Program-made: the position numbers and the translations under genes
NCBI GenBank assembly: GCA_964371245.1
Contig: CAYJKP010000001.1
Coordinates: forward strand, 507,042-571,041
Direction: 5' to 3'
Length of the DNA stretch: 64,000 bases
DNA from: an uncultured Gammaproteobacteria bacterium
Lineage (GTDB): Bacteria > Patescibacteriota > Patescibacteriia > JAHIZJ01
Shown here: in pieces, positions 14,164 through 53,929 of the stretch
Layout: each line of letters starts with the position of its first letter
Numbering within the stretch: position 1 is the first letter of the stretch
The notes under the pieces: model-generated
Database searches by the model: none
What the model was told of the DNA's origin: nothing
What the model saw: only the letters and a program-made list of their open reading frames with translations

Positions 14164-15324
14164 ATGCCAAAACGCGAGACTATTCACCGAACGAAAATCC
14201 AGCGATCGTATCGGACCATCGTGGTCGTATTCTTTATCGTCGCCATCCTGCTGGTCACCAGCATCGCCTATTTCTCATTTTCAAAAACCACCATTTCAGT
14301 CGTGGCTAAACCCGATCCGTATTCTACCACGATTACTTTTTCAATCGTTCAAAAAACTGAGCCTGAATCATTAAGCGATCAAACGGTGTTAGCGGGGGTT
14401 GTGCTTGAAACAACCCAAGAGGTCCAAAAAGAATTCCAAGCCCAAACTCAAAAGGACACGGTGCCAGCGAAAGCCACCGGCAGCGTCGTCATCTACAACA
14501 AGCAGAGTAAAGCCCAGCCGTTGGTTGCCGGAACGCGCTTGCTCTCGCCCGAGAATATACTTTTCCGGACCGATACGCGCGTTGATGTGCCGGCGAACGG
14601 CCAAGTCGAAGTGACCGTCACTGCCGATCAGCCTGGAAAAACAGGCGAACTCGGTGCCACCCACTTCACGCTGCCCGCGCTCTGGCCGGGACAGCAGGAT
14701 AAAGTCTATGCTGAGAATGCTGAACCGATGACCGGCGGCACGCGCAATACGACCGTCGCCACGCGTGAGGAAATCGCCAAAGCGAAACGTGAAACATTCG
14801 ATGAGTGCTATGCCAAAGCCCTCGACGTCATGGACACGGAACTAAAAAAACGAAACGCCGATTATACGATCCGGGCTTCGAAAAAGGAAGTGATCAGTGA
14901 GCTGTCATCGGTTGAGCCGGAAACAGCGACCACAACATATACGATTACTACAAAAATCCATGTGATCGGGGTGAGTTACGATGAACAAAACGCCAACGCT
15001 CAGGCCCTGAAACAGTCCCAAAACAAAGTATCATCAAACGCGACTTTCATCCTCTCGACTGATACACCCTATCGTTCCGAGGTTGACCAATACGATATGA
15101 CAAATCAGAGCGCGAATTTACGGGTAACTGTCTCCGGCTCGACGATCGTAAATCTCTCGCATGACATGTTTGATCGGAAAAAACTGATGAATATGGATCG
15201 CGAGGAGGTCGAACGGTACTTTGCCCAGTATCCCGAGATTGAATCCGTGGAAGTCCATTTTTCACCGTTTTGGCTGTTTCGCACGCCGTCGCTCGCCGAC
15301 CATATCGATGTTAAATTGCAATAA
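14164..15324 (+). CDS. Hypothetical membrane-anchored extracellular protein
   Basis: 386 aa with an N-terminal TM helix and a T/S/Q-rich beta-like region. No recognizable catalytic motif. Confidence 0.4.
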   Translation: MPKRETIHRTKIQRSYRTIVVVFFIVAILLVTSIAYFSFSKTTISVVAKPDPYSTTITFSIVQKTEPESLSDQTVLAGVVLETTQEVQKEFQAQTQKDTVPAKATGSVVIYNKQSKAQPLVAGTRLLSPENILFRTDTRVDVPANGQVEVTVTADQPGKTGELGATHFTLPALWPGQQDKVYAENAEPMTGGTRNTTVATREEIAKAKRETFDECYAKALDVMDTELKKRNADYTIRASKKEVISELSSVEPETATTTYTITTKIHVIGVSYDEQNANAQALKQSQNKVSSNATFILSTDTPYRSEVDQYDMTNQSANLRVTVSGSTIVNLSHDMFDRKKLMNMDREEVERYFAQYPEIESVEVHFSPFWLFRTPSLADHIDVKLQ

Positions 15325-15330
15325 GGATTC

Positions 15331-15359
15331 TTGACAGATCTGGGCTCTTTTTCTACTAT
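15331..15359 (+). promoter_or_regulatory. Sigma70-like promoter TTGACA-17-TACTAT for the thrS leader
   Basis: Consensus -35, a 17-nt spacer and a -10 directly upstream of the structured leader. Confidence 0.5.
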
Positions 15360-15365
15360 GTCAAT

Positions 15366-15530
15366 ACCGGGCGATTGACTAGGCTACCAACCTAGTTAGG
15401 ACTTCCTAGCCTTCACTGGCCTAAGCCAAGACAATTCAACGAGCGGTCGGTCAGCTGACCGGCAATTTGGGTGGAACCGCCCACGAAATATTGGGTCCCA
15501 ATCAGCGCATTGTTTGGGATTTTTATTTTC
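15366..15530 (+). promoter_or_regulatory. T-box-like riboswitch leader of thrS
   Basis: Conserved T-box core AATTTGGGTGGAACCGCC at ~15463-15484. An upstream hairpin CTAGG-CTACCAA-CCTAG presents the threonine codon ACC followed by A in its loop. A downstream intrinsic terminator follows. Confidence 0.5.
15496..15529 (+). terminator. Intrinsic terminator of the thrS leader (attenuator)
   Basis: Stem TCCCAA/TTGGGA with a 12-nt loop followed by TTTTTATTTT, sitting between the T-box core and the thrS start. Confidence 0.45.
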
Positions 15531-15543
15531 TATTAATACACGT

Positions 15544-17283
15544 ATGAAACCAAGCCAACTTGAAAAGATCCGCCATTCCCTGTCTCATCTTTTAGCTATG
15601 GCCGTACTCGAAAAATTTCCTCAAGCGAAACTGGCCATTGGCCCGACGATCGAGAATGGGTTTTATTACGATTTCGATCTTATGGAGAAAATAAATACCG
15701 AGGTGTTGCCCGCGCTTGAAAAAAAGATGAAGGCGCTGATAAAACAGAACCTCGAACTTGTCCAATCAATTGAAACGCCAGAGACAGCGAAAAAAATGAT
15801 GGCGTATCAGCCCTATAAAATTGAGCTGATCGAGGAGTTAATTAAAGGAAAATCTGACTTATCTTTCTACCGCTCGGGCAATTTTATTGATCTGTGCAGC
15901 GGTCCTCATGTGGCCACGACAAAAGAAATCAATTCTGACTCTTTTAAACTCATTTCGGTCGCTGGTGCCTACTGGCGCGGCGATGAGAAAAAACAACAGC
16001 TTCAGAGGATTTACGGCGTGGCATTTGCGACGAAAGCGGAGCTTGATGCGTATCTGGCCCAGCAGGCTGAGGCACTCAAACGTGATCACCGCAAGATCGG
16101 ACAAGAATTGGATTTATTTACCATCTCACCGTTGGTCGGCTCCGGCCTGCCCATGTATACGCCTCGTGGTGTTGTTATGTTCCGGGCGATAACCGGTTTA
16201 TTGAATGAACTGGAAACAGCGTATGGTTATGAGTTCGTCGATATCCCCCACCTCGGGAAAATTGACTTGTATAAGACATCAGGCCACTGGGACAAATACA
16301 AAGACTCCATTTTTACGGTGAAAGGCCATGGTGAAGATTTCGTGCTCAAACCGATGAACTGCCCGCACCACATGCAGATTTACGCCTCCCGGCCGCGCAG
16401 TTGGCGGGATTTACCGGTACGATATTCCGAGGTCACGAAGCAATATCGCGACGAAAAGGCTGGCGAGCTGCTGGGATTGTCCCGGGTACGTTCGATTTCA
16501 ATCGACGACAACCATATTTTCTGCCGTCCGGACCAGCTCCAGGATGAAATGGAGCACGCCTATCAGATCATCAAGAAATTCAGCGGTGTCTTCGGCTTTG
16601 AACACATGATCCGGTTGTCCATCCGCGACCCGAAGAAAAAGGCCAGTTATTTGGGTGACGATGCCACCTGGGCAAAAGCCGAAAAGGAGCTGGTAAAGCT
16701 ACTCGACCGGTTAGGCGAAAAATACGTTATTGGTGAAGGCGAAGCGTCGTTTTATGCCCCGAAGATCGATTTCATCCAGAAGGATTCCCTGGGCCGGTCG
16801 TGGCAGCTCTCGACGATCCAGCTTGATTTTGTCGAGCCTGAACGCTTCAACCTCGAATACGCAGACGACAAAGGCAATAAAACCCGGCCAGCCATTCTTC
16901 ATATTGCCGTGGCCGGATCCCTGGAACGATTCTTGTCCATCATGATCGAGCACTACGCCGGCGCCTTCCCGGTCTGGCTGTCTCCGGTTCAAGTCCAGCT
17001 CATTCCCGTCGGGTCGCGCCATGAGGCTGCCTGCCAGAAGCTCGCGCGCGAGTTCACAACGCTGGGCATACGAACCAATGTCGATGTACTGAACGAAACA
17101 GTGGGAAATAAGATACGCAAGGCTCTGAAAACGAAGGTGCCCTATCTTCTCGTGATCGGCGACAAAGAAGAAAAATCGACAAAGCTGCATATTCGCAAAC
17201 GTGGTGATGATACAGTTCATCTTCAATCGAAAAAACAGTTTACCGCGCAGCTACTCAAAGAAATTGCGGAGCGCCTGACGTAG
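15544..17283 (+). CDS. thrS: Threonine--tRNA ligase (short form without N-terminal TGS domain)
   Basis: Begins at the editing-domain-like region (HSLSHLLAMAV...GFYYDFD). Class II motifs and an anticodon-binding domain are present. 580 aa. Confidence 0.9.
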   Translation: MKPSQLEKIRHSLSHLLAMAVLEKFPQAKLAIGPTIENGFYYDFDLMEKINTEVLPALEKKMKALIKQNLELVQSIETPETAKKMMAYQPYKIELIEELIKGKSDLSFYRSGNFIDLCSGPHVATTKEINSDSFKLISVAGAYWRGDEKKQQLQRIYGVAFATKAELDAYLAQQAEALKRDHRKIGQELDLFTISPLVGSGLPMYTPRGVVMFRAITGLLNELETAYGYEFVDIPHLGKIDLYKTSGHWDKYKDSIFTVKGHGEDFVLKPMNCPHHMQIYASRPRSWRDLPVRYSEVTKQYRDEKAGELLGLSRVRSISIDDNHIFCRPDQLQDEMEHAYQIIKKFSGVFGFEHMIRLSIRDPKKKASYLGDDATWAKAEKELVKLLDRLGEKYVIGEGEASFYAPKIDFIQKDSLGRSWQLSTIQLDFVEPERFNLEYADDKGNKTRPAILHIAVAGSLERFLSIMIEHYAGAFPVWLSPVQVQLIPVGSRHEAACQKLAREFTTLGIRTNVDVLNETVGNKIRKALKTKVPYLLVIGDKEEKSTKLHIRKRGDDTVHLQSKKQFTAQLLKEIAERLT

Positions 17284-33940: not shown

Positions 33941-35080
33941 CTAGGAACGCGGCTGAAATCGGGGTAGCAATTGCTCCATGATCTTCTTGATGCCACCGTA
34001 CTCAAGCTCGCCATAGGGCAGCATGGCAGGGCCGAAGAACCCCTGCTGGCGAAGACCGAGGGCCTTCTCCTGGACCTTGCGCCTGACCTCGTCCCAGGCC
34101 GGGTTGCCGAAGACGTCTTCGGCGCTGCGGCTGAACGTTCCGCCCGGCGCGAGGGAGAACGACATCGCCGACACAATCGGTAGACAGTATGGTCCCGTCA
34201 CGGCCGTGTTCTTGGGCACGGGCATGAGCGGCATGACGTGGCTGCCGCGCGCGCCGCCGGCCACGTAATGGCCGATCACCCAGGGCATGACCACCTCTTC
34301 CAGCGCCGGGAAGATCCCCTGGATGCGCACGATCGCCACCGGATCGTCCTTGCCGGTGTACCGGCCGGCGATGTTGTGCAGGCGCTGGGCCGAAACGGCA
34401 ACGGCCTGCTGCTTCGGAAACGCGCGGGAGTAGATCGCATCGATCGCGAACCGCTCATTGTCACGCAGCAGCGCGGCGATCGCATACAGATCTTCCGGCG
34501 CCTGGAGCGTGATGAGTGAATCGTGATCAGCCTGATCCATGTCGATGATCTGGAACGTGTAGCCCTGGCTCTGCCGGTCGGAGAGGATGAGTCCGCTCGA
34601 GTACATCGGATCGGCGAAGGCCAAATAGAACGGAAGGTTGTACGCGCCGGGGCCGCACTTGTCGGCCGCGAACACGACGAACGACTCGGCCGGACGACAG
34701 GTGCCAGCCGCCGTCGGGTCATGTTCGAATGTCAGCTCGGCCACGGCCGGTCCGGCACCGCGCAGATTGCCGGAGGGCGCGTCGACCAGAAGGTCCTGGC
34801 CAGCTGCATAGAGACCGCGCTTCTGGGCGTTACGCGTTGCCCCCAGAAACGCGTGGTGAACCAGTTCGAGGTGCACCACCTGGCTCAGCGGCCCGTGCAG
34901 ATGGGCCAGCACGCAGTTGATGTCATCCCCGGTGAACATAGTCAGTCCATCGAGAATTGTCTTGCGGCTGACCGCCTCCCGCACTGCGCTCTGGACGGTG
35001 GCCATCATTTCCGATGATGGCCGCGTATGTCCACCGATTGATCCAACGTCCGCCTTGAGACAAGAAAGAGTGACCTTCAT
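33941..35080 (-). CDS. Fructose-1,6-bisphosphate aldolase/phosphatase (archaeal-type class V FBPase)
   Basis: N-terminus MKVTLSCLKADVGSIGGHT matches the FBP aldolase/phosphatase family start. About 380 aa, very GC-rich, strong AGGAGG SD. Confidence 0.7.
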   Translation of the reverse strand: MKVTLSCLKADVGSIGGHTRPSSEMMATVQSAVREAVSRKTILDGLTMFTGDDINCVLAHLHGPLSQVVHLELVHHAFLGATRNAQKRGLYAAGQDLLVDAPSGNLRGAGPAVAELTFEHDPTAAGTCRPAESFVVFAADKCGPGAYNLPFYLAFADPMYSSGLILSDRQSQGYTFQIIDMDQADHDSLITLQAPEDLYAIAALLRDNERFAIDAIYSRAFPKQQAVAVSAQRLHNIAGRYTGKDDPVAIVRIQGIFPALEEVVMPWVIGHYVAGGARGSHVMPLMPVPKNTAVTGPYCLPIVSAMSFSLAPGGTFSRSAEDVFGNPAWDEVRRKVQEKALGLRQQGFFGPAMLPYGELEYGGIKKIMEQLLPRFQPRS

Positions 35081-35111
35081 GAGAGTCACCTCCTCTGTCG
35101 TGGGCCGAGAA

Positions 35112-35143
35112 GCAAAATAACACACAACCCTTCTCTGAGGGTT
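35112..35143 (-). terminator. Intrinsic terminator ending the long ribosomal/dikinase-like operon
   Basis: Stem AACCCT/AGGGTT followed on the minus strand by a T-rich tract (GTGTGTTATTTTG). Confidence 0.4.
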
Positions 35144-35207
35144 TCGCTGCTATCTTACATGATTTTTGAAAATAAAAAAGAGGCAGGGTGTGAATAACTT
35201 TTTTCTG

Positions 35208-35723
35208 TTATTCGGCTGCCAAGTTCTTGTAGAGCGAGTGGACTTCTTCGCTAAAACAAGCGATTATTACTCTCTTTATGCTCGTATGTTTTTGAATGAA
35301 TTGACGAATCTCTCGCAGGGCAATCGGCGCCGCTATATCGACTGGAAATCGGTATGCTCCCGTGCTGATTGACGGAAAGGCGATCGTCTTCACTCCATTT
35401 TCCACGGCGAGTGTAAGTGAATTACGGTAGCACGAGGCTAATTGGTCTGCTTCGCCGCGCGTCCCGCCAGTCCAGACCGGCCCGACCGTATGGATGATGA
35501 ATTTCGCCGGCAATTTATAGCCTTTGGTAATTTTCGCTTCGCCAGTCGGACAGCCGCCGATTTTTTCGCATTCCTTCAATAGCTCTGGTCCGGCTGCCCG
35601 GTGGATCGCTCCATCCACTCCCCCGCCTCCCAACAAACTTGAGTTGGCTGCATTGACGATCGCATCAACATGAAGCGTGGTGATGTCGGCTTTAATAATT
35701 TCAATCCGTCTATTTGCCATCAT
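35208..35723 (-). CDS. Macro domain protein (O-acetyl-ADP-ribose deacetylase/MacroD-like)
   Basis: Motifs [23 protein letters not shown] and GEAKIT...HTVGP. 171 aa. Confidence 0.8.
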
Positions 35724-37228
35724 TATCGTATTTTCCTGACTAAGCCGTTCGCCGCGTCAATTTCAACCAGATCGCCGTCTTTTAAAACCCGCATGGCCAT
35801 GCGCGTTCCGACCACACAGGGTATTTTCAGCTCCCGGGCAATGATCGCCGCATGCGACGTCAGCCCGCCCTCATCGGTCACAATCGCTCCGGCTTTGTGC
35901 ATGTAGGGAACGAAATCAGGCCGCGTCATGTAGGTCAGCAGTATCTCCCCCGGCCGCAGATTCTTGCCATGCTTTGACGGCGTTTCGATTTTGCGAATAA
36001 TGCCACGCAGGACGCCTGGCGATGCACCGATGCCATGCAAAACCGTCGTGTTGGCCGGCACATTCATACCCGAAATCCGTTTCCAGATTCGCTCATACTG
36101 CTGTCCGCTGACCATGCCCTCGGCACCGTTCGTAAACGCATAATAGAGACAACCGTTTTTTCGGCGTTTCAATTCCGCGCTGGCCACACGTCTTCCTCGG
36201 TAGACGGCAAAGAGTTCATCCGGCGTGAGGTGCCAGATTTCTGTCCTGGTATAACCGAGCTGCTTGGCAAATACACTGATAAATTTCTGGCACCAATAGT
36301 TGGCGATCAGGTTAGCCTGTTTCCGCTCATCTTGCCAATGTCCGGCAAATCCGATCGAGCGCAGAATTTTTATTTCGGTCGTCGTTAGCCGCGTGTGGTT
36401 TTTTGCTTTCCGTTGTAGCGTGATCGTATGTTTTTGGTAGCGTTGTAATTCGCGCGCCCGCTGACGCAAAGCAGTACGTGGACGGGCAATGTAGGACCGC
36501 AGTTTTTGAAAAAAATGATCATTGGTTAATGGCACAGTGTTGCGATAATCAAAATAGATCCAAAAAAACTTTCGCTGAATATGCTCAAGCGCTCGATACT
36601 GTTTCGGCCATTGTTTTCGAAATTCATCCATTTTCCTCGGCAGCCGCTTCCCTTCCAATCCCAGCGCCAGTTCGAGCAGAGGCAGCTCGGCGCGTTGAAG
36701 AAATGATGGTTTCGGCGCGCGGGTAAAGATAACGATGTCGGAATCCAGTTGCTTGTACTCGGCGTAGCGCCGTTTTAGTTGCCGTACGAATTTATCCCCG
36801 CCCAGCGAATAATATTCAGTAATCAGCGGGAGGCTATATTCTCGAAGGTAAATATGATAAAAGCGCCGAAATTCTTTCGACGGCTGTTTTGTAATATCAA
36901 GGCGCTCCAACCGGCTGATTTCGCGGTAAAATTCCCGTTTGCGCTCCAACCAGCACCGGTAGACGCGCTGGACGTATTCGGGCTGTCGGAAGCACCAATA
37001 CCCTTTATCTTCAAATTCCTGCTCGTCGTAGATCCAATACGATTTCAGACCGTTCTGCGTGGAAACAACGGCGATTTTCTCAGCGCCCAATTTCGGAAAT
37101 TGCCGGCGGAGCACGGAGGTGATCGCCTGTCCGGGAATGATCGCCGTGAACGGCACGAAGACCCCGCCCTGGATCACCCAGTGCGTGGTACCGGAAAATA
37201 ATTTCTTTTCGGCCGCGGCAATATTCAT
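35723..37228 (-). CDS. Swivel-domain protein A: unknown basic/aromatic N-terminal domain plus C-terminal PEP-utilizing-enzyme phosphohistidine domain
   Basis: C-terminus GIGASPG...[25 protein letters not shown]...[10 protein letters not shown] matches the PpsA/PPDK/rifampin-phosphotransferase His domain. Its start overlaps the gene B stop (ATGA). Confidence 0.6.
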
Positions 37229-38250
37229 ACTTTTGTAATGATACCACGATTGGCGTCCACTTTGATCCGATCGCCGGTTTGTAAAACCTGCGTCGCTACT
37301 TTTGCCCCGATAATGCACGGGATTCGGAGCTCGCGCGACACGATCGCCGCATGGCAGGTTATTCCTCCTTCATCGGTAACGATCGCCGATGATTTTTTCA
37401 TGGCGCCAAGATAGCGTGGATCCGTCATCGGCGTTATAAGTATTTCTCCATTCTTTATCGAGCGCAGATCGCGCGGATGCAATATTATCCGCGCTTGTCC
37501 AAATACTTTACCACCATAGGCGCATTGTCCTGTTATCATGCTGGCATCGATAGTTCGTTCAATTTCTTGATATAATTCCTTAATTTTCTTTCTGGCATTG
37601 ATACCGGTTAACACCTTTTTCTTATTTCGACCATATATGACGCATGATTGTTTCCGACGTTTCTGAATATTTGTCGGCAATGTACCCGTAGCCAAATACC
37701 GATAATATTCTACGTCAATTAGGTATCGCAAGGTATCTTTTCCGAGCCCCCGTTCTTTCTCAAAACGCGCGAGCAACGTCGCGTGATGGCTGATCCCAAT
37801 TTTATGGACCAGCTCGTATTTTCTCCTTGTCCGCATCAGCGTTTGTAGCAGGGCCGCGCTGCATCGTTCTCTCAAGCGCGGCACGTAAGCGGCCACAAAA
37901 ATAATGTCAGTAAATTTGCGGATAAATTCTTCTGACTCCTTTAAGGCAGCGAGCGTGTTACCATGTTTTCCTCTGACGAAATTCTGAAAAGACATGCGCT
38001 CGCGTTCCCGTGCCGTAATAAGTTTGTTCAGATTATTTAAAGAATGATTTTTCAGCCAGCCAAGAGCATATCCGCGATAATCTGTTTCTGCCAGCCAGTG
38101 ATTGAACACGCCATTCTCAACGGTTACGTACATCGTATGCGGGACATAATGAAAATACCGGCACAACCGCTGAGACAATAATTCATCCATGACAAAGGTG
38201 GTGGCTAGGACTGTATATGACCGACGATGTTTTTCATAACGCACGCTCAT
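37225..38250 (-). CDS. Swivel-domain protein B (paralog; unknown N-terminus plus PEP-utilizer His domain)
   Basis: C-terminus TDEGGITCHAAIVSRELRIPCIIGA...TGDRIKVDA. Confidence 0.6.
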   Translation of the reverse strand: MSVRYEKHRRSYTVLATTFVMDELLSQRLCRYFHYVPHTMYVTVENGVFNHWLAETDYRGYALGWLKNHSLNNLNKLITARERERMSFQNFVRGKHGNTLAALKESEEFIRKFTDIIFVAAYVPRLRERCSAALLQTLMRTRRKYELVHKIGISHHATLLARFEKERGLGKDTLRYLIDVEYYRYLATGTLPTNIQKRRKQSCVIYGRNKKKVLTGINARKKIKELYQEIERTIDASMITGQCAYGGKVFGQARIILHPRDLRSIKNGEILITPMTDPRYLGAMKKSSAIVTDEGGITCHAAIVSRELRIPCIIGAKVATQVLQTGDRIKVDANRGIITKV

Positions 38251-38263
38251 TATATTCCGACAA

Positions 38264-39712
38264 TTATCGTTTTATGATATTGCCCTTATTCGCATCCACC
38301 TCCACTCTGTCACCGTCTTTTAAAACGTGCGTTGCCGTTTGTGTCCCGATAACGCACGGAATGTTCAATTCGCGCGAGATGATCGCCGCATGACAGGTCA
38401 AGCCACCCTCATCGGTCACAATAGCCGCGGCGCGTTTCAATAACGGAACGTATTCCGGCCGGGTCATATGGGCGACGATGATATCGCCGGTTTTAAACTT
38501 TTTAAAATCCGCCTTCGTTTCAACGATTTTTACGCGGCCAATGACTGACCCTGCGTTTGCGATCGTGCCGTGGATAGCCTTTCCCTTATCGCTCTGGGTC
38601 ATGACATGGTACAGCTGCTTTGCTTCGCGTCCGTACAGCCAGCCGCATTTCTGGTCTGCGGTACAGAGGAAGGCACTGAAAGCCAGCCTCTTTTTCAGCG
38701 TCTGTTTTTGCGCCGATGTCAGACGCCAGCCCGTCAGATCGATTGGCGTTACCATGCCGGCTAGCTGCTGAGTAATATGGTTTTCTTTGGCTAACCGTTT
38801 GAGTATTTGGAACAGATGCGCGTTGGTAATATTTGTCGCGTATTTTTTGCGTTCATCGCGCCAGTCGCTCATTTGCCGAAAAAGATAGAAGACGTTGTCT
38901 AATTTCTTTGGTACGTGTTTCGCTTTCAAGATTTTCTGTATCTGCCGACGATTTTTCCTAATTGTACGGTTAATCTTTACCAGTTCAGTCTTCAAGGATT
39001 TCAATTTTTTTACGTCTTTTTGTATTATATGGTAGAAATATCGATCATCTAAAATATGCACATATGCCCAATTATTTTTGTACCAGCTGAATTTTTGACG
39101 ATGTCGTTTTACCCCCTGGGTAATGTCGCGATCAGTTGCCAACCGTTTCACGAGTTGCAGTCGTGATTCCAGTTCCTCCTGGACGAAACTCAATTTTGTC
39201 GGCGCAATCAGTGTTTGAATTTCTTTTGCGGATAAATTGCATTTTGCCAGCGTAATTTCTTGTTGAAGCGCCTTTTCCCCGTCGGGATCAGACCATTCGA
39301 TTAACACGGCGGTGATCCAGTGCGCCAAAACGTTTTTCATATGCCACGCTAAAAAACTCCGCAGCTCTGCGTCAGACCATGATGATATCGGCTTTTGGAA
39401 GCGTCTTTGATATTCGATTAAAACCCGCTGCATCTGTTCGCGCCATAATGCGATCCGGCGATCAATCGTTGCGCTATCCCGTTTTTGCCGTTGTATTACC
39501 TGCCAAAGCAAACGATATTCCTTCTCCCGATCAAAATACGCAATATTACGATCGCCGCATTGAAAATAAATATTTCGGTCATACCCCAATGTTTCATTCA
39601 TCGAGAGATACGGGGTAAAACCGTAGAATAGCCAAATCGCACCGCCTTGTTTATACCAGCGCCGTTTCGTAATTGTCCTGATGTTCGGTTTGATCTTGCT
39701 AATAATCTTCAT
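38264..39712 (-). CDS. Swivel-domain protein C (paralog; unknown N-terminus plus PEP-utilizer His domain)
   Basis: C-terminus TDEGGLTCHAAIISRELNIPCVIGT...KDGDRVEVDA. 482 aa. Confidence 0.6.
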   Translation of the reverse strand: MKIISKIKPNIRTITKRRWYKQGGAIWLFYGFTPYLSMNETLGYDRNIYFQCGDRNIAYFDREKEYRLLWQVIQRQKRDSATIDRRIALWREQMQRVLIEYQRRFQKPISSWSDAELRSFLAWHMKNVLAHWITAVLIEWSDPDGEKALQQEITLAKCNLSAKEIQTLIAPTKLSFVQEELESRLQLVKRLATDRDITQGVKRHRQKFSWYKNNWAYVHILDDRYFYHIIQKDVKKLKSLKTELVKINRTIRKNRRQIQKILKAKHVPKKLDNVFYLFRQMSDWRDERKKYATNITNAHLFQILKRLAKENHITQQLAGMVTPIDLTGWRLTSAQKQTLKKRLAFSAFLCTADQKCGWLYGREAKQLYHVMTQSDKGKAIHGTIANAGSVIGRVKIVETKADFKKFKTGDIIVAHMTRPEYVPLLKRAAAIVTDEGGLTCHAAIISRELNIPCVIGTQTATHVLKDGDRVEVDANKGNIIKR

Positions 39713-40794
39713 ATCTTCCTCACAATCCCCTTAGTAGCATCAACTACCACCCGATCGCCGTCTTTGAAAACCTTTGTGGCGAACTTTGTCCCGACAATGC
39801 CTGGGATGCCAAACTCACGGGTAATAACCGCCGCGTGGCTTAACATACCGCCTCCCTCATCTGTCACCACTGCCTTAACTCGTTTGAAATGCTTGACGTC
39901 ATCCGGCCGAGTCATATTTGTGACGTAGACTGGCCGAGTTGGCCAGCTTTGTCTGTTTAGGTTACACACCACAACGCCGACAATCCTGCCCGGTGAAACT
40001 GGCGTGCCCTGGATTAGTCGGCTGGCCGGTTTCTGAACCTGAAGCTGCCTTCGAACCCGACTGACAACGGCGCTATCGGTTTGAACAACTTCTCGGCTAG
40101 ATGCCCAAAGATAAACATAGCCTTTTCTACGGCGTCGAAGCTCATCCTTTGATACGGTCAGTCGTTTTTGCCGAAGTGTTTGCAATAACTCAGAACGCGT
40201 CATCATTCGACTGAGTGAGATATTGAGTCCGTATTCCGTAAATGCTCTCTGAAGTGCCCGCGTTATTAAGTGCTCGCAACGCGGATAGCTTTTCGCGCTA
40301 GTGTCGCGCTCCTTGCCTAATCTGGACAAATCAATCCGGGGAAAAGGACTTTGTCCAGACTTCGCAAAATCAAGGTATCTCCAAAATAAATTATATGTCC
40401 CGATTCCGCCTAACAGCTTTGGGTAATCCGTGAGAACAAACTGAATGAATTGAACTGGGTCAGTTTTTACGAGGCCTTCATATCTTTTAAGACCCACGGC
40501 AAAATCGTGGCACTGCTGAAACGCCTGACGACGCGTATTTCTAAGCCAGCCGGGTTGATGGGCTAATTTAGACGAAACCTCACGAACAATGTAGTCACTA
40601 TTAACTAATGAATGGAAGCCTCGATTGTTTCCGACGCCACCAAGATGCAAATATGACATCCCGGATATTTGACGAGCATTCGTACAAAATCCCTGAGCAA
40701 TGCAGCTCAGCGATACCAAAGGAAGCGCTCGATATACACCACCCTCCGATCGCAAGCCCATCTTTTCCAATCGTTGAGATAAGTCCAACATCAT
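39709..40794 (-). CDS. Swivel-domain protein D (paralog; unknown N-terminus plus PEP-utilizer His domain)
   Basis: C-terminus TDEGGGMLSHAAVITREFGIPGIVGTKFATKVFKDGDRVVVDATKGIVRKI. ATGA overlaps with both C and E. Confidence 0.55.
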   Translation of the reverse strand: MMLDLSQRLEKMGLRSEGGVYRALPLVSLSCIAQGFCTNARQISGMSYLHLGGVGNNRGFHSLVNSDYIVREVSSKLAHQPGWLRNTRRQAFQQCHDFAVGLKRYEGLVKTDPVQFIQFVLTDYPKLLGGIGTYNLFWRYLDFAKSGQSPFPRIDLSRLGKERDTSAKSYPRCEHLITRALQRAFTEYGLNISLSRMMTRSELLQTLRQKRLTVSKDELRRRRKGYVYLWASSREVVQTDSAVVSRVRRQLQVQKPASRLIQGTPVSPGRIVGVVVCNLNRQSWPTRPVYVTNMTRPDDVKHFKRVKAVVTDEGGGMLSHAAVITREFGIPGIVGTKFATKVFKDGDRVVVDATKGIVRKI

Positions 40795-41876
40795 ATTTTC
40801 CTCACAATCCCCTTGGTCGCATCCACTTCCACCCGATCGCCGTCTTTGAAAACCTTTGTGGCGAACTTTGTCCCGACAATGCACGGTATTTTCAACTCTC
40901 GAGCCACAATCGCCGCATGGCAGGTCAAACCGCCTTCGTCAGTGATGATTGTTTTGGCATTGCGCAGATACTGGGAAAACCGAACCGTCGTCATCGGTGT
41001 TACGATCACGTATCGCCCGCGGATCTTTTTCAGATCTCGCAATGTTCGGACCACCCGGGCAATGCCAATGACGGGCTTTCGCGCGGCGTACGCGGTTTGG
41101 CCATGGAGAGCATCAACATCGTTGCTTTTCCTGCCCGGTACTTCACGCTCGACTTGTTTCTGTATTTGTTTCGCGCGCTGGCCAATAAACAATTGTATTT
41201 TCCCACCGATCGCTTGCAATGCATACAGACGGTACCGTTTTTCAAGTTCTGACGCTGAAACCACTGATCTGTTTCGGCGCAACGACTCAACCAATTCCTG
41301 GCAATTCATAAACATGACTCGCTTTTTTTCTAGCCTCAGCGTAACACCGAGTGACGCCGCAAACGCCGGGATGACAGTATCGTCAATCCAGGTTAATGTC
41401 TTGCCACAATAATCTTTGGTGTAGCCGCAATCAGCGATTGTTGCGCGCGTAAAGGCATGGCGATGCGTATCGACGAGCGTGGGAAAGCGATAAACCGAAT
41501 ACATCTCTCGATAATATTTGTAGAATTCTATCAGTAATTCGCTCAGAACGGTGGTAGCTAGATTTTTTTCAAGCTGCATATAAATACGACGGATCTGACG
41601 GCTGCGTTTCGCAAAAATCCTTCGTATTTTAGAATTCAACTGGTTAATAGTTCTTCCTTGGCACGAGTGGAGGAACCGCAGGAACGAACGCGAATCGCGT
41701 TCCGAAAAATAACTTTTTTCAATATCCTTTTCAGAAATAAAAAGCTGGTCGCGATAGCCCCAGCCGAGCGCTTTCTTCATATCGCGGACATACCCCTCGA
41801 GACCGAGGCTCAGAATGAAATACGGAAAGCCCTCCCGGGTAAAGACGGGGGTCCATTGTATGCTTCTATTTCCCAT
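40791..41876 (-). CDS. Swivel-domain protein E (paralog; unknown N-terminus plus PEP-utilizer His domain)
   Basis: C-terminus [50 protein letters not shown]. Its last ~95 nt are about 90% identical to the gene D 3' end. Confidence 0.6.
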   Translation of the reverse strand: MGNRSIQWTPVFTREGFPYFILSLGLEGYVRDMKKALGWGYRDQLFISEKDIEKSYFSERDSRSFLRFLHSCQGRTINQLNSKIRRIFAKRSRQIRRIYMQLEKNLATTVLSELLIEFYKYYREMYSVYRFPTLVDTHRHAFTRATIADCGYTKDYCGKTLTWIDDTVIPAFAASLGVTLRLEKKRVMFMNCQELVESLRRNRSVVSASELEKRYRLYALQAIGGKIQLFIGQRAKQIQKQVEREVPGRKSNDVDALHGQTAYAARKPVIGIARVVRTLRDLKKIRGRYVIVTPMTTVRFSQYLRNAKTIITDEGGLTCHAAIVARELKIPCIVGTKFATKVFKDGDRVEVDATKGIVRKI

Positions 41877-47820: not shown

Positions 47821-52261
<4,441 letters not shown>

Positions 52262-52265
<4 letters not shown>

Positions 52266-52573
52266 GGCGCACGAAGAATTACTAAAACAACGACGGCTAC
52301 AAACAATAAGAGACCGATCGTAATAAACCCGATCATTTCAGCAATCTCAGCATGACGCCGCAGCTTTTCGGTGTTGGCTGTTGAGCGCGACGGTATGATG
52401 AATATCAAAACACCGAGCAATACACTATATAATAAGTCAAAAAGAAACGAGGCAGTCGTAAACTTTTCATCGGTGGCAAAATCGAAACCGACCGCTAATA
52501 TGGCAAACAAAATAAATCCCATGAGTGCATTGAAAAGACGTGTTTCGAAAATTGTTTTAAACTGTTCCTTCAT
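52262..52573 (-). CDS. Small hypothetical membrane protein between pheS and pheT
   Basis: About 103 aa with two or three TM helices. Start MKEQFK overlaps the stop of the upstream small gene (ATGA). Confidence 0.35.
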
Positions 52574-52887
52574 TTTATTTTCGTCATGTTTTGAATTAAT
52601 TTGAAAACCAGCAAGCCATAGAGTAAGACGGCTAACGCCAACTTGATGAAAAGATCGTGTTTTGGCTGGACAACCACCGGCTTGGCGCTTGTTTGCGCCC
52701 GCTCCCGACGTCGCGTCCGGACCATAAAAATGACGATGAAGCTGGTGTAGCTGATCACGCCGATGACAGACCAAAACTGGAGCGTATTATCAACCGCCAG
52801 ATCCCAGCCTAAACCGTAGAGTAATACCAACAGGAAATAGACGGGCAAATCGTAATTTCGGTCTCGGATTTTGGTGAGAAAATTCAC
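52570..52887 (-). CDS. Small hypothetical membrane protein between pheS and pheT
   Basis: 105 aa with two or three TM helices; co-oriented and coupled to the next small gene. Confidence 0.35.
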   Translation of the reverse strand: MNFLTKIRDRNYDLPVYFLLVLLYGLGWDLAVDNTLQFWSVIGVISYTSFIVIFMVRTRRRERAQTSAKPVVVQPKHDLFIKLALAVLLYGLLVFKLIQNMTKIK

Positions 52888-52891
52888 GGTA

Positions 52892-53929
52892 TTAAAATTG
52901 TGATAAAAATCTCAAATCTCCGGCATACGCTAAACGGATATCCGGGATCCCGTAGTAGAGCATCATCAGACGATCGATGCCGAGCCCGAAAGCAAAACCG
53001 CTGTATACTGTTGGGTCAATGCGCATGTTTTTTAAAACGATCGGATGAACCATCCCGGAGCCGAGCATTTCTAGCCAGCCGCGCTGTTTACATACCGAGC
53101 AGCCTTTTCCGCCGCATAAGATGCAGCTCATATCAACATCAAGTCCGGGTTCGACAAAGGGATAATACTCGGGCCGGACGCGAATACGCACCTGTTCGCC
53201 ATACACGCTCTGAAGGAACGCTTTCAGGGTACCAATTAAATCGGTAACGCGGATGCCCTTATCGATAACCAGGCCTTCACACTGATAGAAGGTGCATTCG
53301 TGCGATGCGTCCGTTGCTTCATGTCGGAACACGCGACCCGGCACAATGATACGGACCGGCGGGCGCCGCTCGAGCATGGTCCTAACTTGCACCGGCGAGG
53401 TATGCGTCCGAAGTAGCAATTGATCTTCTGCGCGGCCGCCGGTTGGCCTTTTCGGCGACGTCACATAATACGTATCCCAGAGATCGCGCGCCGGATGGTC
53501 GGCCGGTATGTTCAATAGGTCAAAATTATATTTCGCGGATTCAATCTCCGGACCATCAACTGTTTCAAAACCCATTGATTGAAATATCGACACAACCTTC
53601 CGTAAAAATTGACTGATCGGATGATAATGCCCGAGGCCGAGCGGCGTGCCCGGTATGGTTGCGTCAATTGATTGAAGGGCATTTTTTCGTGCCGCCACGG
53701 ACCGGCGCGAGGCAATGGCCCGCTCAATCGCTTGACGGACATCGTTTGCTTCCCGACCGACCTGGCGTCGCTGATCAACAGGCAGATTTTTCAGCTCACG
53801 CAGAAAAGCGGTGAATTTCGATTTTCGACCGAGGTAGCGAACCGAGAGTTCTTCGAGTTTCTGAGGCGATGACGACTGTTCAATTTCCGACAAGGCCTGA
53901 CGCTGGATGTGTTGAAGGAATTCGTTCAT
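52892..53929 (-). CDS. pheS: Phenylalanine--tRNA ligase alpha subunit
   Basis: Class II aaRS motifs (FRxE, GLGIDR). 345 aa. Confidence 0.9.
   Translation of the reverse strand: MNEFLQHIQRQALSEIEQSSSPQKLEELSVRYLGRKSKFTAFLRELKNLPVDQRRQVGREANDVRQAIERAIASRRSVAARKNALQSIDATIPGTPLGLGHYHPISQFLRKVVSIFQSMGFETVDGPEIESAKYNFDLLNIPADHPARDLWDTYYVTSPKRPTGGRAEDQLLLRTHTSPVQVRTMLERRPPVRIIVPGRVFRHEATDASHECTFYQCEGLVIDKGIRVTDLIGTLKAFLQSVYGEQVRIRVRPEYYPFVEPGLDVDMSCILCGGKGCSVCKQRGWLEMLGSGMVHPIVLKNMRIDPTVYSGFAFGLGIDRLMMLYYGIPDIRLAYAGDLRFLSQF

Follow-up and report, generated by a model that had tools for sequence, protein, structure and literature searches.

The window analysed here is the whole stretch of 64,000 nucleotides (64 kb), and the region under study is an intergenic leader bounded by an upstream open reading frame (ORF) at 14164-15324 and the thrS gene at 15544-17283, both on the forward strand. 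The thrS product, a ThrRS of 579 aa, was assigned to TIGR00418 with a score of 645 bits. The ATG at 15544 was taken as its start because ThrRS homologues align from residue 1-5. A domain search found no match to an N-terminal TGS domain in the protein, which together with its length supports the 'short form' named in the first-pass annotation of this DNA. The relatives of this ThrRS were found in Patescibacteria (CPR), the closest being 72% identical (MAG STA_36), and this places the host of the window in the same group of ultra-small bacteria. An identical ThrRS is encoded on a 918-kb contig, ENA ERZ13693045 NODE_11. The 'Gammaproteobacteria' label of several related assembled genomes looks unreliable.

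The sole domain match of the upstream ORF was a weak one, Baseplate_J-like (E=2.5e-5). Within the same ORF, TGGGTGGCACCGA at 14651-14663 on the reverse strand carries one mismatch to the T-box core; it lies antisense in coding sequence with no gene downstream and was judged a chance occurrence. Elsewhere in the window, no T-box sequence was found upstream of pheS/pheT (49857-53929, reverse strand), and the synthetase genes of this genome are therefore not all under T-box control. The region 33941-40884 on the reverse strand holds a class V (archaeal-type) fructose-1,6-bisphosphatase (PF01950, E=4e-129), adjoining three tandem ORFs (391-531 aa), in each of which only a C-terminal PEP-utilising mobile domain was recognised.

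The following elements were located in the leader and directly downstream of it:

15331 to 15359, forward strand: sigma-70-type promoter, with -35 TTGACA at 15331-36, a 17-nt spacer and -10 TACTAT at 15354-59
15367 to 15372, forward strand: 5' strand of helix P0, of which GGC 15370-72 alone is paired in the window, with GCC 15425-27; the relatives show covariation
15373 to 15377, forward strand: junction motif GAUUG between P0 and P1; GAUUG in 11 of 13 leaders, with the variants GAACG and AAUUG
15378 to 15396, forward strand: P1, a reduced Stem I, ACUAGG 15378-83 pairing with CCUAGU 15391-96 (6 bp) around the loop CUACCAA 15384-90
15397 to 15408, forward strand: P2a, small hairpin UAGG-ACUU-CCUA from a constrained fold; a hairpin of variable sequence and length stands here in 12 of 13 relatives
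15409 to 15424, forward strand: P2b, GCC-UUCACU-GGC at 15409-20 from a constrained fold, then CUAA at 15421-24; C-Y-A-A in 13 of 13 leaders
15425 to 15430, forward strand: 3' strand of P0, closing a four-way junction; GCC 15425-27 pairs with 15370-72
15441 to 15465, forward strand: RRRNG motif GAGCG 15441-45, Stem III GUCGGUC-AGCU-GACCGGC 15446-63 and AA 15464-65, from the RF00230 alignment
15468 to 15500, forward strand: antiterminator; A1 UGGG 15468-71 with CCCA 15497-15500, bulge UGGAACC 15472-78, A2 GCCCA 15479-83 with UGGGU 15492-96
15496 to 15529, forward strand: intrinsic terminator; UCCCAA 15496-15501 pairs with UUGGGA 15514-19 and, inside this stem, 15503-04 with 15511-12; the U-run UUUUUAUUUU follows at 15520-29
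15544 to 17283, forward strand: thrS, the putatively regulated gene

The first-pass annotation had listed four elements for this region, and all of them are present, which confirms a T-box-like thrS leader at 15331-15543. The promoter matches the consensus at 10 of 12 positions and puts the start of transcription at about 15366; equivalent TTGACA-type promoters lie directly 5' of P0 in the relatives L001, L002, L004 and L005. In the hairpin, the Thr codon ACC lies at 15386-88 within the 7-nt loop CUACCAA and is followed by a purine (A at 15389). The conserved T-box sequence, AAUUUGGGUGGAACCGCC, was found at 15464-15481, downstream of the RRRNG motif as defined in PMC7778990; its 7-nt bulge contains UGGA (15472-75), complementary to a tRNA 3' end UCCA. 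The terminator, with its U-run, precedes the start codon. It had been missed by a simple terminator scan with a loop limit of 8, as its loop counts 12 nt.

At its gathering threshold (93 bits) the Rfam T-box model RF00230 gave no match in the whole 64-kb window. A permissive local search of 501 nt resulted in 27.4 bits (E=3e-4) for 15441-15500, corresponding to model positions 159-216 of 219, and the aligned part comprised GAGCG, Stem III, AA and the antiterminator. The first-pass annotation had named the lack of a significant RF00230 hit as a finding that would refute it. The outcome was divided: the match obtained covers the 3' domain, and it lies far under the gathering score with the 5' half unmatched, so that such a lack is only half the case. 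No likeness to a canonical Stem I was seen in the alignment of the window leader 5' of model position 159, and none of the K-turn, the internal specifier loop with S-turn, or the elbow platform of AG bulge and distal loop could be found in this leader, where the stretch from the inferred transcription start to Stem III is no longer than about 75 nt. The other short thrS leaders of Patescibacteria are of the same kind, scoring between 23 and 39 bits against the threshold of 93. With scores below the threshold, these leaders are missed by standard genome annotation. L049, run through the same tool as a positive control, matched the full model and reached 109.6 bits. This element (L049:106-332, labelled Thermoflexales (Chloroflexi)) is a full canonical T-box with UGGA, situated just past a tRNA-Val and 5' of an aminotransferase-like gene. 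One relative of the thrS leader, L003:1601-1796, showed a canonical-looking long Stem I, in which ACAGAGA forms the AG bulge and a distal loop is present; it has no Stem II region and scored 43 bits. Long and minimal forms of Stem I therefore both occur among close thrS orthologues.

For the comparative analysis, 80 related thrS loci of Patescibacteria were sampled. The sequence GGTGGAACCG was found upstream of the gene in about 17 of them, in all 17 cases with UGGA, while the T-box was absent at the remaining sampled loci (about 80% of the 80). Thirteen thrS leaders, that of the window included, have a common layout, in which P0 is followed by GAUUG, P1 with the ACC loop, a variable segment, CYAA and the second strand of P0; membership of this family was decided by regular expression and pairing checks. 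Across the 13 leaders the 5-nt junction can be summarised as G-A-N-N-G, with AAUUG listed among its variants. The P1 loop consists of 7 nt in every leader; ACC occupies its positions 3-5, position 6 is a purine, and nine of the loops read CUACCAA. ACC is invariant while the surrounding stem covaries: P1 is 96% paired across the 13 sequences and shows compensatory changes at all six pairs. P0, which has 4-6 bp in the relatives, covaries at all six positions.

When the fixed-length parts of the 13 leaders were aligned, 92.9% of the cells of P0 and P1 were paired, against 53.8% for shuffled sequences, and none of 500 shuffles reached the observed value. Changes on both sides were found at 12 of the 12 pairs, and pairing fell to 27-38% in a control where the 3' partners were slid by 1-3 columns. 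RNAalifold predicted the same two helices from the untouched sequences with no prior input. The recurrence of this layout in 13 orthologues, with compensatory changes in all pairs of two helices, shows that the leader element is real and far beyond chance.

With P0 and P1 enforced, the variable segment folded into two small hairpins in 12 of the 13 leaders, giving a four-way junction, which was the unconstrained minimum free energy (MFE) structure or lay within 0.5 kcal/mol of it in eight of 13. For the window the junction is 0.7 kcal/mol above the unconstrained MFE; here P0 is weak (3 bp) and a competing hairpin GGC-CUAA-GCC is possible, so that the P0 claim is carried by the comparative evidence and not by the window alone. 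The short Stem I with a specifier in its terminal loop, as it had been described in the first-pass annotation, was upheld as regards the ACC loop and its covarying stem, and has to be modified in one respect: it does not stand free and forms one arm of the four-way junction closed by P0.

Several further features of this domain were considered. P2b with CUAA bears a resemblance, and no closer relation, to the Stem IIA hairpin of canonical T-boxes and the 'UUA' that comes after it in the Rfam consensus. A K-turn or S-turn at the GAUUG/CUAA junction was rejected on inspection, as strand order and sequence fit neither consensus. The linker sequence CAAUU at 15433-15437 of the window is complementary to GAUUG at 15373-15377; L004 (CAAUC) shows the same, and L001 (CAAUA) does so in part. 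A family-wide pseudoknot pairing GAUUG with a linker CAAUY was discarded, being possible in these three leaders and absent in the other ten; judged from the sequences, the complementarity may represent a subgroup-specific pseudoknot. In three thrS leaders of the family (L033:1781-1810, L042:1886-1910 and L079:1819-1855) no Stem III is evident, and just a short, A-rich linker joins the P0 3' strand to the T-box sequence. A T-box-like match on the minus strand of L036 lies within coding sequence and was set aside.

A relic was considered as a rival explanation. Reduced genomes often lose regulation. The leader could then be a decaying canonical T-box that has lost Stem I and no longer regulates, acting as a constitutive leader or a plain attenuator, and the absence of a T-box from about four fifths of the sampled loci, like the canonical long Stem I kept in L003, would suit such a history. 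The ThrRS proteins of the family are only about 45-72% identical to that of the window, and still the compensatory changes in P0 and P1, the invariant ACC, GAUUG/CYAA and the matched terminators have been kept over this distance, which makes decay a highly improbable explanation.

The 3' part of the leader can adopt two alternative structures. Antiterminator and terminator share 15496-15500, the terminator 5' arm overlapping the 3' strands of the antiterminator (15492-15500), and this shared segment makes the two helices mutually exclusive. The mutually exclusive pairing that had been anticipated for the two alternative folds was thus found on folding. The terminator state has a predicted MFE of -34.2 kcal/mol compared to -21.6 kcal/mol for the antiterminator state. 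As the terminator is favoured by about 12.6 kcal/mol, antitermination needs a ligand, which is the off-by-default arrangement expected of a switch. The MFE structure of the terminator state also shows that the T-box 5' strand (15468-15483) can fold on itself as UGGGUG-GAAC-CGCCCA; according to this model, the hairpin would further disfavour the antiterminator. All 17 leaders have a terminator with a U-run overlapping the antiterminator, 12 of them identified by script and five read by eye. The terminator hairpin energies of the relatives range from -13.5 to -33.8 kcal/mol (for the 12 of 17 displayed by the script), and the L001 stem carries a compensatory change to CCCCAA/UUGGGG.

Whether the 3' hairpin serves transcription or translation has to be weighed at this point. 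A T-box acting mainly on translation like actinobacterial ileS, or on both levels, with the 3' hairpin as a sequestrator, would agree with published descriptions, in which a terminal-loop Stem I is to date known from translational T-boxes alone (bioRxiv 10.1101/2023.02.28.530422; PMC7583486), and the hairpin of the window, with a stem of only 6+2 bp and a 12-nt loop, is weak for a terminator. This hairpin is, however, directly followed by UUUUUAUUUU, no Shine-Dalgarno sequence that could be sequestered is recognisable in 15530-15543, and the terminator helix does not include the ATG. The relatives carry strong GC-rich hairpins with U-runs, at -21 to -34 kcal/mol. A mainly translational or two-level mode of action is accordingly regarded as improbable, and transcription attenuation is the preferred reading.

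No tRNA gene was detected in the 64-kb window, and tRNA-Thr was found neither there nor in the 80 thrS loci. After extension of the contig by 10 kb, a tRNA-Thr(GGU) gene was located on the same contig about 0.6 kb past the left end of the window (L087:11661-11736). It has the acceptor stem GCCGUUG/CAACGGC, U73, an encoded CCA and the anticodon loop AUGGUAA. Its anticodon GGU is complementary to ACC, and U73-CCA is complementary to UGGA. The pairing of UGGA with a discriminator U, which had been predicted before this tRNA was at hand, is therefore borne out by the one tRNA-Thr gene examined. The gene stands in tandem with a tRNA-Tyr(GUA) gene (L087:11661-11835, outside the window), and both encode CCA.

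A second group of leaders was found 5' of genes for non-discriminating AspRS in Patescibacteria. L040 carries, directly past a thrS gene that has its own T-box, a second T-box 5' of a non-discriminating AspRS gene (NF003483, 516 bits), and among five further AspRS loci with DNA three bear such a leader. All four have the bulge UGGC and strong terminators. Their positions and the hairpins aligned in the specifier region are:

L040:3805-3995: aspS leader, specifier hairpin CCGG-CUGACA-CCGG
L209:~2285-2480: aspS leader, specifier hairpin CCGG-CCGACA-CCGG
L212:~1298-1490: aspS leader, specifier hairpin ACUG-CUGACA-CAGU
L213:~1256-1490: aspS leader, aligned hairpin GCUG-UUAAACC-CAGC (within 1256-1300)

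Three of the four show the Asp codon GAC in the small hairpin loop C(U/C)GACA on a 4-bp stem, and RNAalifold backs this hairpin with compensatory changes. The fourth, L213, is ambiguous: the loop of its aligned hairpin offers AAC (Asn) or AAA in place of GAC, and CUGAC occurs in a neighbouring hairpin. Judging by its sequence, this leader might sense tRNA-Asn, since the AspRS enzyme also charges tRNA-Asn and the loop holds AAC. The discriminator base of tRNA-Asp is usually G, which matches UGGC. As the triplet changes from ACC to GAC and the bulge from UGGA to UGGC together with the gene, both the loop triplet and the UGGN base track the synthetase gene. Downstream of the specifier hairpin, the aspS leaders contain a purine-rich helix (GAAAGAA...AGUAGAA) like the canonical Stem II with S-turn, followed by Stem III, the bulge and the terminator; P0, GAUUG and the CYAA junction were seen in none of the four. 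A metagenome scan with the pattern GATTG-N6-CTNDCA-N{66,96}-GGTGGNACCG, the middle base of the codon being other than C, resulted in at least 120 matches. Among the matches listed, four passed a P1-pairing filter with at least five of six pairs, compared to about 3.6 expected by chance, and gave no evidence for a GAUUG-type scaffold serving other amino acids.

These observations also bear on a protein-based explanation. The thrS operator of E. coli mimics the anticodon arm of tRNA-Thr, shows the anticodon, is bound by the ThrRS protein and acts on translation. A similar ThrRS-binding operator, with the T-box-like sequence being incidental, would account for an anticodon-loop-like P1 loop (CU-NNN-AA) that stands invariant on a 6-bp stem 5' of thrS. 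The loop, however, shows the codon ACC and none of the Thr anticodons (GGU, UGU, CGU), and it is conserved along with the T-box bulge, Stem III and the terminator. UGGA matches U73 of tRNA-Thr(GGU), while the GAC triplet and UGGC bulge of the aspS leaders fit pairing with a tRNA and not an operator specific for ThrRS. The chance that the hairpin is such an operator is considered minimal.

Taken together, we hold with high confidence that the leader is a tRNA-Thr-sensing T-box riboswitch with a reduced decoding domain, controlling thrS by transcription attenuation. The overall T-box reading of the first-pass annotation, based on a terminal-loop ACC, UGGA and a terminator, is thereby supported through the 3' discriminator domain, the exclusive folds, the invariant ACC and U73. 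Starting from what is observed, namely the sequence elements, two covarying helices (P0 and P1), two mutually exclusive 3' structures, a tRNA of the same genome that fits and the change of triplet and UGGN base in the aspS leaders, the following course of events can be proposed. Transcription would start near 15366, and the first ~64 nt would fold as a four-way junction of P0, P1, P2a and P2b. The P1 loop CUACCAA, with its anticodon-loop-like sequence pattern (pyrimidine, U, three bases, purine, any base), would display the Thr codon ACC, and the anticodon GGU of tRNA-Thr would bind it by loop-loop pairing. With uncharged tRNA, the 3'-terminal U73-C-C-A would pair with UGGA at 15472-75, within the antiterminator bulge; Stem III would stack on the tRNA-UGGA helix, the antiterminator would be stabilised and RNA polymerase would read into thrS. 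With charged tRNA, the terminator (15496-15519), being the more stable structure, would form with its U-run, and transcription would stop 15 nt before the ATG. tRNA binding, the sensing of charging, termination and a role of the junction in compensating for the missing tRNA-elbow platform are what we infer. Transcriptional T-boxes generally need a long Stem I platform with an elbow-binding motif for fast capture of the tRNA (PMC7583486), and in view of this requirement the kinetic competence of the minimal thrS form is putative.

A full-text literature search, of incomplete coverage, found neither a report of a T-box in Patescibacteria or the candidate phyla radiation nor a leader of this type. 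The combination of a codon in a terminal loop with a terminator, on thrS or aspS, appears to be absent from the T-box literature searched. [quoted passage not shown] If so, this class would overturn both the need of transcriptional T-boxes for a long Stem I and the confinement of terminal-loop specifiers to translational ileS leaders, and it would be the smallest tRNA-decoding module in nature. For the reading of one structured RNA by another, the T-box riboswitch is the standard example. Functional leaders of this kind would widen the phylogenetic and structural range of T-boxes, adding two more synthetase genes from a separate bacterial radiation of very large size, and would represent a rare case of RNA-based regulation in Patescibacteria. 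A helix-closed decoding domain of ~64 nt, if functional, would also make an attractive target for structural studies and for the design of orthogonal tRNA sensors.

In comparison with known systems, the window leader resembles the canonical transcriptional T-box (RF00230; B. subtilis tyrS, thrS, glyQS) in the 7-nt UGGNACC bulge of its antiterminator, the order RRRNG-Stem III-AA, the competing terminator, the NNC specifier followed by a purine and the position 5' of an aminoacyl-tRNA synthetase gene. It differs from it in that the codon lies in a 7-nt terminal loop, a long Stem I is lacking and P0 encloses the decoding domain.

The ultrashort Stem I class carries its Specifier Sequence in a terminal loop, and all its members regulate ileS at the translational level (bioRxiv 10.1101/2023.02.28.530422). 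The window leader shares with these ileS T-boxes of Actinobacteria (M. smegmatis, M. tuberculosis, N. farcinica) the terminal-loop specifier, the lack of an elbow platform and the discriminator domain (bioRxiv 10.1101/2023.02.28.530422; PMC12990946). It precedes thrS with the specifier ACC, whereas the ultrashort class is limited to ileS and tRNA-Ile, and it possesses a terminator with a U-run in place of a Shine-Dalgarno sequestrator. The ultrashort class further depends on an S-turn in Stem II and on a IIA/B pseudoknot, which support the codon-anticodon helix; at this place the window shows P2a, P2b and CUAA, in a four-way junction closed by P0, with no AGUA/GAA by inspection. The likeness to actinobacterial ileS T-boxes that had been pointed out at first thus holds for the terminal-loop specifier and not for the 3' hairpin, which is a terminator; at the place of Stem II, no S-turn was seen on inspection of the sequence. 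The separation from the ultrashort class is drawn from published descriptions.

The aspS leaders of Patescibacteria, from the same organism group, are like the thrS leader in their terminal-loop specifier, discriminator-matched bulge and strong terminators. They differ from the thrS type by GAC/UGGC and by a Stem II-like helix, with no P0-closed junction seen. The leader also resembles the E. coli thrS operator as a hairpin in a thrS leader with a 7-nt anticodon-loop-like sequence pattern. Unlike the operator, the window loop shows a codon, and a T-box discriminator domain and a terminator are coupled to it.
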